Below are positions 1-3,922 of a stretch of DNA of 64,000 bases, one piece after another. The notes below the pieces were generated by a model. The model had not been told where the DNA came from. It saw nothing but the letters and a program-made list of their open reading frames with translations, and did no database searches. The stretch covers positions 1,856,001 to 1,920,000 of the forward strand of contig OZ253580.1 of NCBI GenBank assembly GCA_965263035.1, given 5' to 3'. Numbering within the stretch: position 1 is the stretch's first letter; each line of letters opens with the position of its first letter. The DNA comes from Acidobacteriota bacterium. Lineage in GTDB: Bacteria > Acidobacteriota > UBA6911 > RPQK01 > JAJDTT01. Position numbers and translations under genes: made by a program.

Positions 1-711
1 GGTATCCTGTTTCGGGGCGCCCCCTGGCTGACCCTGCGCAGCTCGGCCTACCGTGGATTTCGGGCCCCGACGCTGAACGAGCTCTATCGCCCCTTCCGGG
101 TGGGCAACGTCATCACCGCCGAGAACCCCGATCTGGGCGAGGAACACTTGTGGGGAGGAGAGTTGGGAGCCGACCTCCATCCGTCCAGCAACGTGCTGTT
201 CCGGATCAACGGTTTCTGGAACTCGCTTCGGGATCCGGTGGGAAACGCCACCGTCTCCGTCGGTCCCCAGTTCATCCAACGCCAGCGGCGGAATCTGGGA
301 CAGGTCTGGGTCCGGGGCCTGGAGTTGGAGACGGGCCTGCAGGGCGACATCCCGTGGAGCCTGAGGATGGGCTACCTCTACTCCCAGACCGAAGTGGGTG
401 AGACCGGCCTGTGGCTGCCCCAGGTCCCCCGCCATCAGTTCACGGCGGAGATCCGTTACGACGGGCCGTTCAACGCGTCTCTTCAGGGAAGATGGGGCGG
501 GGATCAGTTCGAGGACGATCGCAACACCATGATCCTGGAGCGCTTCTTTCTCCTGGGCGCCAGCGTCCGAAAACCGTTGGGCGAATCGCTGGAGATCTTT
601 CTGGCGATCGAGAATCTCCTGGACCAGGACTACGTGGTTCGGCTGACGCCGTTGCCCTCACTGGGCACCCCCCGCCTGATCTATGCCGGCATTCAACTCC
701 GGCTGAGGTAG
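1..711 (+). CDS. TonB-dependent receptor, C-terminal part (5' truncated by window)
   Basis: Frame open from base 1: GFRAPTLNELY motif, ENLLDQDY...GTPRLIYAGIQLRL C-terminal beta-strand typical of TonB receptors. Confidence 0.85.
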   Translation, partial: GILFRGAPWLTLRSSAYRGFRAPTLNELYRPFRVGNVITAENPDLGEEHLWGGELGADLHPSSNVLFRINGFWNSLRDPVGNATVSVGPQFIQRQRRNLGQVWVRGLELETGLQGDIPWSLRMGYLYSQTEVGETGLWLPQVPRHQFTAEIRYDGPFNASLQGRWGGDQFEDDRNTMILERFFLLGASVRKPLGESLEIFLAIENLLDQDYVVRLTPLPSLGTPRLIYAGIQLRLR

Positions 712-746: not shown

Positions 747-896
747 GGGCGACTTTCTTGTCGCCCGCTGGGAGAGGAGATTTTCTTGTCGCCGACTCTT
801 CACGGAGGGTTGTTGCTGTGCGATTCGGCGGCCGGAAAGTGTAGAGTGGGGACTCCGTCCCCCCTACCCCCCTAATCGGCGGCAAGAAAACCGCCG
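747..896. repeat. REP-like palindromic units (GGCGAC-N6-GTCGCC-GCTCC family), left part of the array split by IS110
   Basis: gggcgactttcttgtcgccc 747-766; tgggagaggagattttcttgtcgccga 769-795; opposite-orientation tcggcggcaagaaaaccgccg 876-896. Confidence 0.75.
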
Positions 897-904
897 CTTG
901 TCTG

Positions 905-1078
905 TTTAAATGGGGCCGTCCGGGTCGCTCATGAGCGACCCGGACGGCGGTGGCTGGACCGTACCGCCGCGGACTGTTACGAACCGTATGGGAGTGAGGT
1001 CGGCCACCGTCTTTCCCGATGTCCTGAATGGATACGAGGGCATCAAGGCCCGAATGACAAGCACAGGAGACAGGAAAG
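905..1078 (+). ncRNA. IS110 bridge RNA (predicted; ends approximate)
   Basis: 5' 34-bp palindrome 915-948; target guides accgccgc 963-970 and atgggag 988-994; donor guides atggatac 1028-1035 and gacaag 1056-1061, each matching a junction. Confidence 0.85.
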
Positions 1079-2026
1079 ATGAAACAGCATACCGTAGGCA
1101 TCGACATCTCGAAAGCGCACCTGGACGCGCACCGGCTGGCCGACGGCCATTCCGCCCAGTTCGACAATGACCCGGCCGGCTTCCGGGCGCTGATTGATTG
1201 GATCGGAACTCCGGTCGAGTGCATCGCGTACGAGGCCACCGGTCCCTACCACCGGGACCTCGAGGAAGCGCTGTCCAAAGCGAAGCTGCCGCTGGCGAAG
1301 GTGAACCCCTGGCAGGCGCGGCGCTTCGCCGAGGCGACCGGGAGCCGCGCCAAGACCGACGCCGTAGACGCTCGGAAACTGGCCCAGCTGGCCGCCACGC
1401 TGGAGCCGCGCCGGACCCAGGTGCCGTCCAAAACGCAACGCCGGCTCCAGGATCTGCAGACGTCCCGGGACGCGCTGATGCGCCAGCGCACGGCCGCGCT
1501 CAACCGCCGCCGACAGCTCCGCGAACCCCTGCTCAAACAGCAGAACCAGATCCAGATCAACATGTTCGAGCGCCACCTGCGCGCCATCGACCGCAAATTG
1601 CAGACGCTGATTGCGGCCGACGAGGCGCGGGCCCGCAAGTTGGAGATCCTCACCTCCATCCCGGGGATCGCGGCCACCACCGCCGCCGGTCTGCTGGCCG
1701 AGATGCCCGAGCTGGGCGCCCTCAGCGGCAAGGCCGCCGCCAGTCTGGCCGGGCTGGCCGCCGTTCCGCGCGAGTCGGGGGCTTGGCAGGGCCGGGCCTT
1801 CATCCGGGGCGGACGGGCGCGGGCGCGACGGCTCCTGTACATGCCGGCGGTGGCCGCCCTGCGCTGGAACCCCGACTTGGCCGAGGTGTACCGGAGGCTG
1901 AGCGAGCGCGGCAAGCCCGGCAAGGTGGCCCTCGTCGCCGTCATGCGCAAGCTTATCGTCCTGGCCAACACCCTCGTCCGGCAGGACCGCACCTGGTTGC
2001 CCGTAGCGCCCCGAGCGACCTTCTGA
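1079..2026 (+). CDS. IS110-family DEDD recombinase/transposase
   Basis: VGIDISK, YEATG, KTDAVD (DEDD); SIPGI and RESG (catalytic Ser) motifs; 315 aa. Confidence 0.95.
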   Translation: MKQHTVGIDISKAHLDAHRLADGHSAQFDNDPAGFRALIDWIGTPVECIAYEATGPYHRDLEEALSKAKLPLAKVNPWQARRFAEATGSRAKTDAVDARKLAQLAATLEPRRTQVPSKTQRRLQDLQTSRDALMRQRTAALNRRRQLREPLLKQQNQIQINMFERHLRAIDRKLQTLIAADEARARKLEILTSIPGIAATTAAGLLAEMPELGALSGKAAASLAGLAAVPRESGAWQGRAFIRGGRARARRLLYMPAVAALRWNPDLAEVYRRLSERGKPGKVALVAVMRKLIVLANTLVRQDRTWLPVAPRATF

Positions 2027-2450
2027 GGCCACGGAGAGACCCCGTGAGGAAAGGGAGCGTGTGGACCCCCTGATGGCCGTCTGTCGAACTTCCGGTCAAG
2101 TCTGGCCGGAAGCTTGCTTACGGCCATGAAAGCTCTTCACGCCCTGGGGAGCGCCGGGTCACCCGAAGGGCCGCAGCGAAGCGGAGGAGCCGGAGGCTTG
2201 ACCCGACGCTCCCCAGGGCGTATCCGGACCTCCCGGAGGACTGACGTCGACGATCTCAGGTCCCTCGATCCAGTTATCGGTCCACTCATCGCCCCCTGCA
2301 CGGCGCCCGCTGGATCCAGCTCGATCTCCGCCTCACCTCCGGCGGAAGAACGCTCCTCCTAACCCTGTGCCCTTTGGACCGGACAGATCACGTACTAACG
2401 ACACGGGATGGAAACACCGATTAGCACCCACCACTTGCAACATGGATACT

Positions 2451-2504
2451 CCCATTCGGCGACAAGAAAGTCGCCGCTCCAGTCGCCGCTCCAGTCGCCG
2501 CTCC
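2451..2504. repeat. REP unit plus tandem 12-bp repeat (gtcgccgctcca x~3), right part of the split array
   Basis: tcggcgacaagaaagtcgccgctcca gtcgccgctcca gtcgccgctcc. Confidence 0.75.
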
Positions 2505-3922
2505 TACCCGTTCAGGTGGACGACCACCATCTTGGACTCGGTCATCTCTTCGACCGCGTAACGGGGGCCTTCCTTGCCCATGCCGCTATCCTTGAGGCCT
2601 CCGTAGGGCATGAGGTCGGCCCTCCATTGGGGGCCCCAGTTGATGTGCAGGTTGCCGCTGTCCACTTCCTGGGCGAATCGCATGGCCCGATCGATGTCCT
2701 GAGTGAAGATAGCCGCCGAGAGGCCGTAGCGAGTGTCGTTGGCCATGGCTATGGCCTGATCGATGTCGTCGAAGCGACTCACGGCCACGGCGGGACCGAA
2801 GAGCTCGTCGCAACTGATCCGCATGGCCGGGTCCACGTCGGCCAGGATGGCCGGTTCCACCAGGGCCCCGTTGCGGGCTCCTCCGGTGAGCAGCCGGGCT
2901 CCGCCGTTCGCCGCTTCCTGAATCCAGTTGGACACGCGGATGGCGTCCGATTCCCGAACCAACGGCCCCATGGTGATCCCTTCCTGGAGCTGATCTCCGA
3001 TGCGAATCCCCTCGACGCCGGTCTTGAGGCGGTCCAGGAACTCGTCGTAGATCCGGTCCGCGGCCAGCACCCGCTGCGCCGAGATGCAGACCTGTCCCGC
3101 GTTGGCGAATCCGGTGGCCACCGTGGCCGCGGCCACCTTGTCCAGATCGGCGTCGTCCATCACCAACAGCGGGGCGTTGGACCCCAGTTCCATGGTGACC
3201 TTTTTCATTCCGGCCACCCTGCAGATATGATCTCCCACTTCGTAGCTGCCGGTGAAGCTGATCTTGCGGACTCGAGGGTCGCCCGAGAGAAAGTCGCCCA
3301 CCTCGCTGCCGGGACCCGTCAGGCAGGCCAGGGCCTGGGGCGGCGTCCCCGCCTCCAGCAGAATCTCCACCAGCTTGAGCGCCGACAGGGGAGTGTCGGT
3401 GGCCGGTTTGACCACTACGGAGTTTCCGGCGGCCAGTGCGGGTCCCACCTTGTGGCAGACCAGATGCAACGGAAAGTTGAACGGGGTGATGGCCACCACC
3501 ACACCGCAGGGAACCCGCAGGGTGAACCCCAGGCGTCCGGCGCAGCCGGGCGCCGCGTCCAGCGGAAGGACCTCACCGGTGATCCTCTTGGCCTCTTCTC
3601 CCGAGAGCCGGATGATCTCGGCGGCTCGTACCGCTTCGATCCGGGCTTCCGCCAGGATCTTCCCCTCTTCGGAACTGATGGTCCGGGCCAGATCCTCCGC
3701 CCGCTCCTCCATGATGTCCGCCGCCTTGGTCAGGATTCGCGACCGGTCGTACGCCGGCAGGTTCCGCATCACGCGGGCCCCCTCGACGGCGCCGGCCAAG
3801 GCTGCATCCACGTCGGCGGGCCGGGCCTTGGGAACGGTGTCCACCACCGAGTCGTCGTAAGGATTCCTGACTTCGATCAGTTGGGGCGTCTCGGTCCACT
3901 CACCTTGTACGAACATTCTCAT
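2504..3922 (-). CDS. Aldehyde dehydrogenase family protein
   Basis: ITPFNFP, FTGS, MELGSN, GQVCIS, ELFGP, YGGLKDSGMGKEG motifs. Confidence 0.95.
   Translation of the reverse strand: MRMFVQGEWTETPQLIEVRNPYDDSVVDTVPKARPADVDAALAGAVEGARVMRNLPAYDRSRILTKAADIMEERAEDLARTISSEEGKILAEARIEAVRAAEIIRLSGEEAKRITGEVLPLDAAPGCAGRLGFTLRVPCGVVVAITPFNFPLHLVCHKVGPALAAGNSVVVKPATDTPLSALKLVEILLEAGTPPQALACLTGPGSEVGDFLSGDPRVRKISFTGSYEVGDHICRVAGMKKVTMELGSNAPLLVMDDADLDKVAAATVATGFANAGQVCISAQRVLAADRIYDEFLDRLKTGVEGIRIGDQLQEGITMGPLVRESDAIRVSNWIQEAANGGARLLTGGARNGALVEPAILADVDPAMRISCDELFGPAVAVSRFDDIDQAIAMANDTRYGLSAAIFTQDIDRAMRFAQEVDSGNLHINWGPQWRADLMPYGGLKDSGMGKEGPRYAVEEMTESKMVVVHLNG

Follow-up and report, generated by a model that had tools for sequence, protein, structure and literature searches.

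What determines the insertion site of a mobile element that has no terminal inverted repeats and that recurs in one genome at closely similar places? The question is raised by a 1552-bp insertion sequence (IS) of the IS110 family located at positions 899–2450 (plus strand) of the stretch analysed here, hereafter "the window", which comprises 64,000 nucleotides of an Acidobacteriota genome (contig OZ253580.1, positions 1,856,001 to 1,920,000 of the forward strand). An earlier note on this DNA had proposed that the non-coding left end of the element specifies a bridge RNA with the layout known from IS621, all four guides of which could be read against the element's own insertion site, and had called the element a complete candidate programmable recombinase with a predicted specificity. 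We consider it highly probable that 899–2450 holds an IS110-group insertion sequence that is complete and of the IS621 kind, with a bridge RNA in the left end that names both the element's ends and its insertion site. What is observed here, and what carries this reading, is the anatomy of the element, its shared boundaries, the sites it occupies, the way in which three guides covary with their partner DNA, the covarying stems of the RNA and the catalytic residues of the recombinase.

The element, whose length includes the right CT core (2449–2450), is preceded by ACCGCCGCT (ACCGCCG-CT, 890–898), begins with TGTC (899–902), ends with ATGGATACT (ATGGATA-CT, 2442–2450) and is followed from 2451 by CCCAT (2451–2455). 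The CT core is found once per junction, at 897–898 and at 2449–2450, in every copy of the element, its left occurrence (plus strand) lying directly 5′ of the element's first base in 13 of 13 copies; neither end of the element (TGTCTG... and ...GGATACT) is an inverted repeat of the other. The left target (890–898) consists of the 3′ arm of a hairpin resembling a repetitive extragenic palindrome (REP), GGCGG-loop-CCGCC-GCT (878–898, plus strand, 6-bp GC stem), plus the CT core, and in the right flank (2451–2478, plus strand) the right target CCCAT is followed by the next REP-like hairpin at 2458–2478. The genome, a single contig of 6.2 Mb, holds 13 copies of the element and one solo right-end fragment; nine of the copies match over the full length 1–1552 (among them copy B1, with a 274-aa open reading frame (ORF)), three are without ~76 nt of the right end and one is truncated. 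The first base is identical in all 13 left ends, and the last base is identical in all 12 right ends and in the solo fragment. Support for the boundaries comes also from four public runs, examined as assembled contigs, because the contigs of all four part from the window sequence precisely at 898 and at 2449, where they have loose ends.

Each of the four guide strings is found a single time in the 180-nt left end, and their order, target loop before donor loop, is the expected one. The left target guide ACCGCCGC (963–970, plus strand) equals the left flank 890–897, and the right target guide (985–994, plus strand) contains ATGGGAG (988–994), the reverse complement of CT plus CCCAT; it is readable to 10 nt, 9 of which match the right flank of the window copy, with one mismatch. 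The left donor guide ATGGATAC (1028–1035, plus strand) equals the right end 2442–2449, and the right donor guide GACAAG (1056–1061, plus strand) is the reverse complement of CT plus TGTC (897–902). On the 5′ sides the guides are equal to the top strand over 8 nt; those on the 3′ sides are its reverse complement, over 7 nt in one case and 6 nt in the other. When the left end was shuffled 200000 times by mononucleotides, each guide taken by itself turned up 963, 4054, 371 and 10635 times, and two or more of them together 294 times. The target accgccg-CT-cccat (890–898 plus 2451–2455) and the circle-junction donor atggata-CT-tgtc (2442–2450 plus 899–902) that the earlier note had reconstituted are both present as written, and so are all the guide strings that it had placed at 963–970, 988–994, 1028–1035 and 1056–1061; the loops, the strand rules and the order of the guides match the published IS621 layout. 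What that readout had passed over is that the left guides lack the core T, that the match to the right flank is loose and that the right end is unusually long.

In IS621 the two bases lying 3′ of each right-hand guide pair, after strand exchange, with positions 6–7 of the other DNA (PMC11208158). The candidate "handshake" bases of the present element are UG in the target loop (995–996, plus strand), whose U could pair with donor position 7 (A2448), and CA in the donor loop (1062–1063, plus strand), whose C could pair with target position 7 (G896). Every listed ortholog has T (U in RNA) as the base that follows the right target guide, opposite donor A7, and the bases after the right donor guide are CA, with a target G7, in all loci of Acidobacteriota and Ca. 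Foliamicus and AA, with a T7, in the alphaproteobacterial loci. By analogy, both pairs of bases would fit the IS621 rule.

The secondary structure was derived as a consensus (RNAalifold) from 12 distinct left ends; two spurious predicted pairs inside the guides (columns 56–57 with 80–81) were removed before the pairs were counted, and two alphaproteobacterial sequences were excluded from the final alignment and from the counts because they were misaligned over the first half of the initial alignment, their stems being compared by eye instead. The consensus consists of a 5′ stem-loop, after which come two stem-loops that contain internal loops, and comprises 37 pairs, with 99.3% of the cells paired and 8 pairs changed on both sides, compared with at most 53.7% paired in slid controls. 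The 5′ stem-loop (915–948, plus strand) is a perfect 17-nt inverted repeat, with compensatory changes in five pairs of helix 1. The target-binding stem-loop (946–1011, plus strand) is closed by the stems 946–953/1004–1011 and 957–960/998–1001, and both target guides lie in its 37-nt internal loop (961–997); the inner hairpin is weak or absent in the Acidobacteriota versions. The donor-binding stem-loop (1012–1077, plus strand) has stems 1012–1017/1073–1077 and 1022–1026/1064–1068 and a small inner hairpin (1038–1041/1048–1051), around which the donor guides lie in internal loops; its helices 4 and 6 show compensatory changes. Folding of the left end, as suggested in the earlier note, gave an IS621-like structure at the level of this consensus, but the minimum-energy fold of the single sequence (z −5.35) places the left donor guide in a hairpin loop and has a donor region unlike that of IS621; it was set aside in favor of the consensus. 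The 3′ arms of the outer donor stems (CAGGA, 1064–1068, and GGAAA, 1073–1077) overlap the purine-rich stretch before the ATG at 1079, so that folding of the RNA could mask the ribosome-binding site.

That ATG opens the recombinase gene (1079–2026, plus strand), an intact ORF of 315 aa in which the residues D9, E52, D94, D97 and S233–G234 align to D11, E60, D102, D105 and S241–G242 of IS621, the catalytic residues of that enzyme (PMC11208158); the numbering of the IS621 chain in the Protein Data Bank (PDB) involves a 2-residue offset that was deduced by the analyst. The intact DEDD and serine residues ascribed to this protein in the earlier note are borne out by this alignment. The protein matches Pfam PF01548 (E 8.9e-23; 81.2 bits) and PF02371 (E 9.4e-19; 68 bits), both above the curated cut-offs, as well as NCBIfam NF033542, "IS110 family RNA-guided transposase" (207 bits, the cut-off being 140). 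Among solved structures the best match is ISCro4 (PDB 9t56, E 1.4e-35, residues 3–299), and IS621 (PDB 8wt6) is matched with E 2.5e-32 over 297 residues; in the HMMER alignment the GID, EATG, KTDxVDA and ESG columns are identical to those of IS621 and ISCro4.

Do the guides change when the flanks change? A scan of species-representative genomes gave 60 loci, of which 59 (L031–L089) were examined and one (L090) was left out; with the anchors chosen, a target loop was recognisable in 53 of the 59, the others being L037, L057, L063, L075, L078 and L079. The orthologs belong to metagenome-assembled genomes (MAGs) of Acidobacteriota (84–94% protein identity), to Ca. Foliamicus (64–69%) and to one alphaproteobacterial MAG (~40–43%). 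With one consensus flank counted per distinct guide, the 9 types of left target guide together agree with their left flanks at 60 of 63 positions outside the core, a count equalled by 3 of 100000 shuffles (mean 38.6). For the right target guide, 8 types yield agreement with the right flank at 36 of 48 positions, which 21 of 100000 shuffles equalled (mean 24.0). Exact matches to the respective left flank are given by the left guides GTCGCCGCT (L031, L035, L036), GACGCCGCT (L038), CACGCCGCT (L039, L089), GCCCTCGCT (five Foliamicus loci) and the 9-nt TTCGTGTCT (most alphaproteobacterial copies), other left guides having one mismatch (L033) or two (L040, L045). On the right-hand side, L038 matches at 8 of 8 positions and the alphaproteobacterial loci carry CGTGAG opposite CTCACG. 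The donor, on the other hand, is constant: wherever a right end is present it reads ATGGATA-CT, with the guide AATGGATAC, and the left donor guide, which never varies, is therefore not informative on covariation. As the first bases of the element vary, so does the right donor guide: GACAAG is found with TGTC, TACAAG with TGTA and GATAAG with TATC.

Two further features of these relatives may be recorded. In the alphaproteobacterial MAG (L047–L088) there are dozens of copies, most of them at TTCGTGT-CT-CACGGCAG; the element has expanded massively there, at a single repeated site. Three loci (L038 1180–2000, L039 1614–2440 and L089 1684–2440) have ~640 bp of extra non-coding sequence, with no convincing ORF in it, between the start of the element and the 5′ stem-loop, which brings their left ends to ~760–830 bp.

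Within the genome itself, the left flanks of the 13 copies are ACCGCCG-CT in nine cases, GCCGCCG-CT in one and ACCGACG-CT in three, and the right flank starts with CC in 11 of 12 copies. The left target corresponds to the 3′ arm of the REP-like hairpins, of which the genome holds 266 that match GGCGR-N6-9-YCGCCGCT, and ACCGCCGCTCC occurs 91 times against ~12 expected from the composition. The earlier note had named three findings, among others, as bearing on its proposal: that other copies sit at similar sites, that their boundaries do not differ and that a change of guide alters the choice of target. The other copies do occur at ACCGCCG-CT-CC-like sites and all have the same first and last base, and as regards the guides, the natural variants are accompanied by matching changes of the flanks.

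Such variants exist also side by side in this genome, and they are the most interesting feature of the element. The 13 aligned left ends fall into three versions of the target loop with a nearly constant donor loop. Version A is that of six copies, including the one in the window. Version B (three copies) has the left target guide ACCGACGC and the right guide TTGGGAG, all three copies lying at ACCGACG-CT-CCCTA; version C (four copies) retains the left guide and has a rewritten right guide. In copy C2 the reverse complement of the right guide (CTCCTTTTCG) agrees with the flank (CTCCTCTTCT) at 8 of 10 positions, and in C1, C3 and C4 a further change of the right guide produces a mismatch at the first base after the core. 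The right guides of A and C are fitted to two variants of the REP linker, CCCATTCG and CCTGTTCG. The sites of the B copies are 38 bp inside the left end of another mobile element, with a 506-aa transposase, which from a reading of the protein sequence, made without a family search, is called IS1182/IS5-like. About 9–10 copies of the latter are present in the genome, for example to the right of the B copies at G000:C1:3693900–3695499, and partial, empty copies lie near 1954209 and 4173830. Four IS1182/IS5-like copies, related at 90%, carry the unoccupied site ACCGAAG-CT-CCTTA (one base different), and one partial copy carries, likewise unoccupied, ACCGACG-CT-CCCAAA, a perfect 15-nt match to both B guides.

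Compared with the REP-targeting relatives (the A copies of the same genome and L032/L034), the guides of version B differ by a single substitution in the left target guide, C967 to A in the numbering of the window. The three co-resident target loops could represent natural reprogramming, version B having left the REP repeats for the left end of another mobile element, a proposal to which we give slightly less than an even chance. If the jump was due to the substitution, a change of one base would suffice in nature to open a new niche to a bridge-RNA element, in this case another mobile element.

How could these parts work together? By homology with IS621, the element would be excised as a circle whose joined ends form the donor ATGGATA-CT-TGTC and, probably, a weak promoter of the sigma-70 type, a promoter rebuilt across the circle junction being reported for IS621 (PMC11208160). 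The presumed hexamers are TTGCAA (−35-like, 2435–2440, plus strand), 10 nt before the end of the element, and TTAAAT (−10-like, 906–911, plus strand), usable only once the circle has formed; in the joined ends they are spaced by 17 nt and agree with the consensus at 4+4 of 12 positions, and Foliamicus orthologs have TTGACA/TTGAAT and TTGACA/TGTAAT at the same places. In L038, L039 and L089 the additional ~640 bp would separate this junction promoter from the RNA. The promoter would give a non-coding RNA of ~165 nt (roughly 915–1078) that folds into the 5′ stem-loop, the target-binding loop with the guides 963–970 and 985/988–994 and the donor-binding loop with the guides 1028–1035 and 1056–1061; the 315-aa DEDD/Ser recombinase would bind this RNA, which would pair with both DNAs, and the strands would be exchanged at the CT core. 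The natural target would be the 3′ arm of a REP-like hairpin with the linker that follows it, and the predicted specificity, as read from the guides and the sites, is ACCGCCG-CT-CC(C/T). Transcription, binding of the RNA by the protein, formation of the circle, present-day activity and reprogrammability are thus expected by analogy with IS621, and "programmable" is to be understood as deduced from homology and covariation.

The assembled contigs of the public runs have a limited bearing on these steps. In RNA library X17 the contig 918–1035 has a depth of 872 and the contig 1037–1418 a depth of 55, the two being roughly level in two DNA-type runs; this contrast is a hint only, because contig depth is no basis for ranking parts within a gene and RNA libraries may contain DNA. 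Contig starts at 918/919 were rejected as a transcription start, contigs of DNA runs starting there too, at a branching of the assembly graph due to variants at 912/915. In all four runs there is also a joint from 896 to 2449 that skips exactly 1552 bases; its shorter sides (21–37 letters) are REP-like and may come from other, unoccupied REP sites, so that the joint was not counted as excision.

Several observations weigh against the reading of 899–2450 as an IS621-type element with a site-naming bridge RNA. In the 12 copies with a right flank, the match of that flank to the copy's own guide runs unbroken from the core for 7, 7, 6, 5, 5, 5, 5, 5, 4, 4, 2 and 2 of 10 positions, and at four ortholog loci the right flank matches CTCC only. 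The left target and left donor guides match the C of the core only, the ninth base being G in both (971 and 1036) against T in the DNA; several orthologues do have T at this position of the target guide. Both stems of the target loop are invariant among the 12 aligned sequences and consequently show no covariation, their prediction resting on energy; the alphaproteobacterial ortholog has GGGG/CCCC and GATC/GATC in their place, compensatory as judged by eye. The guide positions used in the covariation counts derive from anchors that were chosen by eye, and the register of the alphaproteobacterial loci was shifted by one base by hand. An Rfam 15 scan (E≤10) left 899–1078 unmatched apart from a weak, unrelated Scr4115 hit (E 8.6, 828–949). 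A standard promoter scan found no sigma-70-like site in the linear form, the junction hexamers fall below that scan's own threshold, and assembled contigs cannot show expression. Finally, the three ACCGACG copies, all of which lie in copies of one other IS, may go back to one insertion that was then passively copied; they were counted as one event because the host element could have spread a single insertion.

Are these matches then a trace of something else? The guides might be captured REP-derived sequence or chance matches, the protein alone reading the site, an idea that can draw on the GC-rich composition of the genome, on the two further occurrences of ACCGCCGC within the recombinase gene (1503 and 1679) and on the sheer abundance of REP-like hairpins; it is hardly credible in view of the scarcity of shuffles with two or more guides, of guides that change along with the flanks across 9 left and 8 right types, of their position in internal loops between covarying stems and of a protein that is a clear homologue of two recombinases solved together with bridge RNAs. 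A bridge-RNA-type element that has become a fossil, its immobile copies merely recording past insertions, is a more serious contender, yet an improbable one. Four of the 13 ORFs are broken or badly diverged (with a stop at 30 aa in C1 and C4 and at 274 aa in B1, and with 120 differences in B3), the right target guide of C1, C3 and C4 mismatches the first base after the core, as mentioned, and the circle junction has 0 matches in the assembled genome. On the other hand, such a junction is not expected in a chromosome assembly, 9 of the 13 copies retain the 315-aa ORF, 2 of 1552 bases distinguish the window copy from A2, and at three different sites A3, A4 and A5 share one sequence with the same 10 differences from the window copy; the presence of near-identical copies at different loci suggests recent movement.

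The alternative that most deserves attention concerns the division of labor between the guides. The target might be chosen mainly by the left target guide and the REP hairpin, with the right guide adding no more than CT plus CC (~4–5 nt) and the specificity being accordingly broader. Such an arrangement would explain why the six copies with identical RNA lie at five differing right flanks (CCCAT, CCCAA, CCTCT, CCCGT, CCCAT and CCTGT) and would suit the observation that in every case a hairpin's 3′ arm serves as the left target; IS621, too, reads its 11-bp target with a left guide of nine bases and a right guide of four (PMC11208160), and for ISPpu10 a preprint gives a rule of sequence plus structure (10.64898/2026.03.19.712850). 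We nevertheless regard it as unlikely, albeit clearly less so than a fossil element, since the right guide covaries with the flank beyond the core to an extent seldom reached by shuffling (36 of 48 positions), as exemplified by L038 and by the alphaproteobacterial pairs, and since extended right guides improve the specificity of IS621 (PMC11208160). The reading preferred here remains that of an IS621-type element whose bridge RNA names both sides of the site.

With IS621 the element has in common the two protein domains, the catalytic residues, the CT core, a bridge RNA placed in the left end (5′ stem-loop, then target loop, then donor loop), guide lengths of 8–9 nt on the 5′ sides and 4–7 nt on the 3′ sides, the strand rules, a left end of similar length (180 bp here, 191 bp in IS621) and insertion into REP elements (PMC11208160); the same bridge-RNA architecture, strand rules and guide lengths are reported there for IS621 and 103 orthologues (Durrant et al., PMC11208160). 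The differences are that the two proteins are only distantly related, that the wild-type target of IS621 is ATCAGGCCTAC (PMC11208160) and not ACCGCCG-CT-CCCAT, that the right and left ends of IS621 together amount to 298 bp whereas the right end alone is 424 bp here, that the left guides are without the core T, that the Acidobacteriota versions have a target loop with a weak inner hairpin or none and that the present element is known from its sequence alone. The likeness to ISCro4, compared by protein alone, lies in the conserved motifs over residues 3–299.

Members of the IS110 group typically have a left end longer than the right one, and members of the IS1111 group the reverse (PMC11208160). 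This trait, typical of but not strictly defining the IS110 group, is absent here, the non-coding right end (2027–2450, plus strand) being much longer than the left; such a length is unusual for an element carrying its bridge RNA in the left end. The IS1111 group shares with the element the DEDD recombinase, the RNA-guided choice of site and the longer right end, but carries sub-terminal inverted repeats (7–17 bp) and encodes its RNA in the right end (PMC11208160). Here all guides are in the left end: the right end (2027–2441) was found to be free of target and donor guide strings, the donor itself excepted, and among the 25 longest inverted repeats there is no sub-terminal pair. On these two grounds the element was not assigned to the IS1111 group. 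A further parallel is offered by ISPpu9 and ISPpu10 of Pseudomonas putida, multi-copy IS110-family elements that reside in repetitive extragenic palindromes, and for ISPpu9 additional sequence, RNA-coding or non-coding, is reported downstream of the transposase (PMC12288879; 10.64898/2026.03.19.712850). The likeness is one of description, and the hosts and repeats are unrelated.

What does the element add to what is known? It provides a complete IS621-type bridge recombinase from Acidobacteriota, with a compact protein of 315 aa and a fully readable RNA. IS621-type bridge recombinases have formed a known class since 2024, and routine annotation already names the protein family after it, so that the finding is sound but ordinary; the completeness of the IS110-group element claimed in the earlier note stands, whereas its novelty had been overstated, given the NCBIfam entry. 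As an intact member it is new to the class, although the supplementary tables of predicted bridge RNAs of PMC11208160 may already include it or its relatives. The workings of bridge-RNA elements as now understood are left unchanged. The relatives from three phyla, with their constant donor ATGGATA-CT-TGTC and varied target guides, form a natural series, which includes the single-base change of the left guide with a matching change of site and from which one may learn which guide positions matter; the element could also serve as one more orthologue to be screened for genome engineering.

The unusual length of the right end deserves a comment of its own. Ortholog right ends range from ~60 to ~425 bp, and because they go down to about 60–160 bp, the excess is, on this comparison, lineage-specific. 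It is at least partly accounted for by an inserted palindromic repeat, near-perfect and with 23-nt arms, at 2139–2221 (83 nt), within a wider repeat at 2104–2233. This palindrome is missing from four shorter copies of the element (1474–1477 bp), copies or pieces of it (75–96% identical) lie at five places of the genome outside the IS copies, and one RNA-library contig skips 2141–2216; it is probably no part of the machinery but an independent small repeat inserted into the element. In an Rfam scan of 600–2800 (E up to 10) only chance-level matches to miRNA and sRNA families were obtained, those over 2133–2229 reflecting the palindrome.

Some minor features of the surroundings complete the picture. 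The only terminator-like site in a scan of 700–2700 is at 877–906 and is made up of the left-flank REP hairpin and the T-rich start of the element; it could shield the region of the bridge RNA against read-through, and the number of such sites in 700–2700 is no higher than in shuffles. Directly 3′ of the right-flank REP hairpin, at 2469–2504, are three exact tandem copies of the 12-mer AGTCGCCGCTCC, each of which includes the target-like core CGCCGCTCC. The insertion site as a whole is an intergenic REP array between window positions 1–711 and 2504–3922, flanked by what we take, from the translations, to be the end of an outer-membrane receptor-like ORF on one side and a convergent, aldehyde-dehydrogenase-like ORF of 472 aa on the other.

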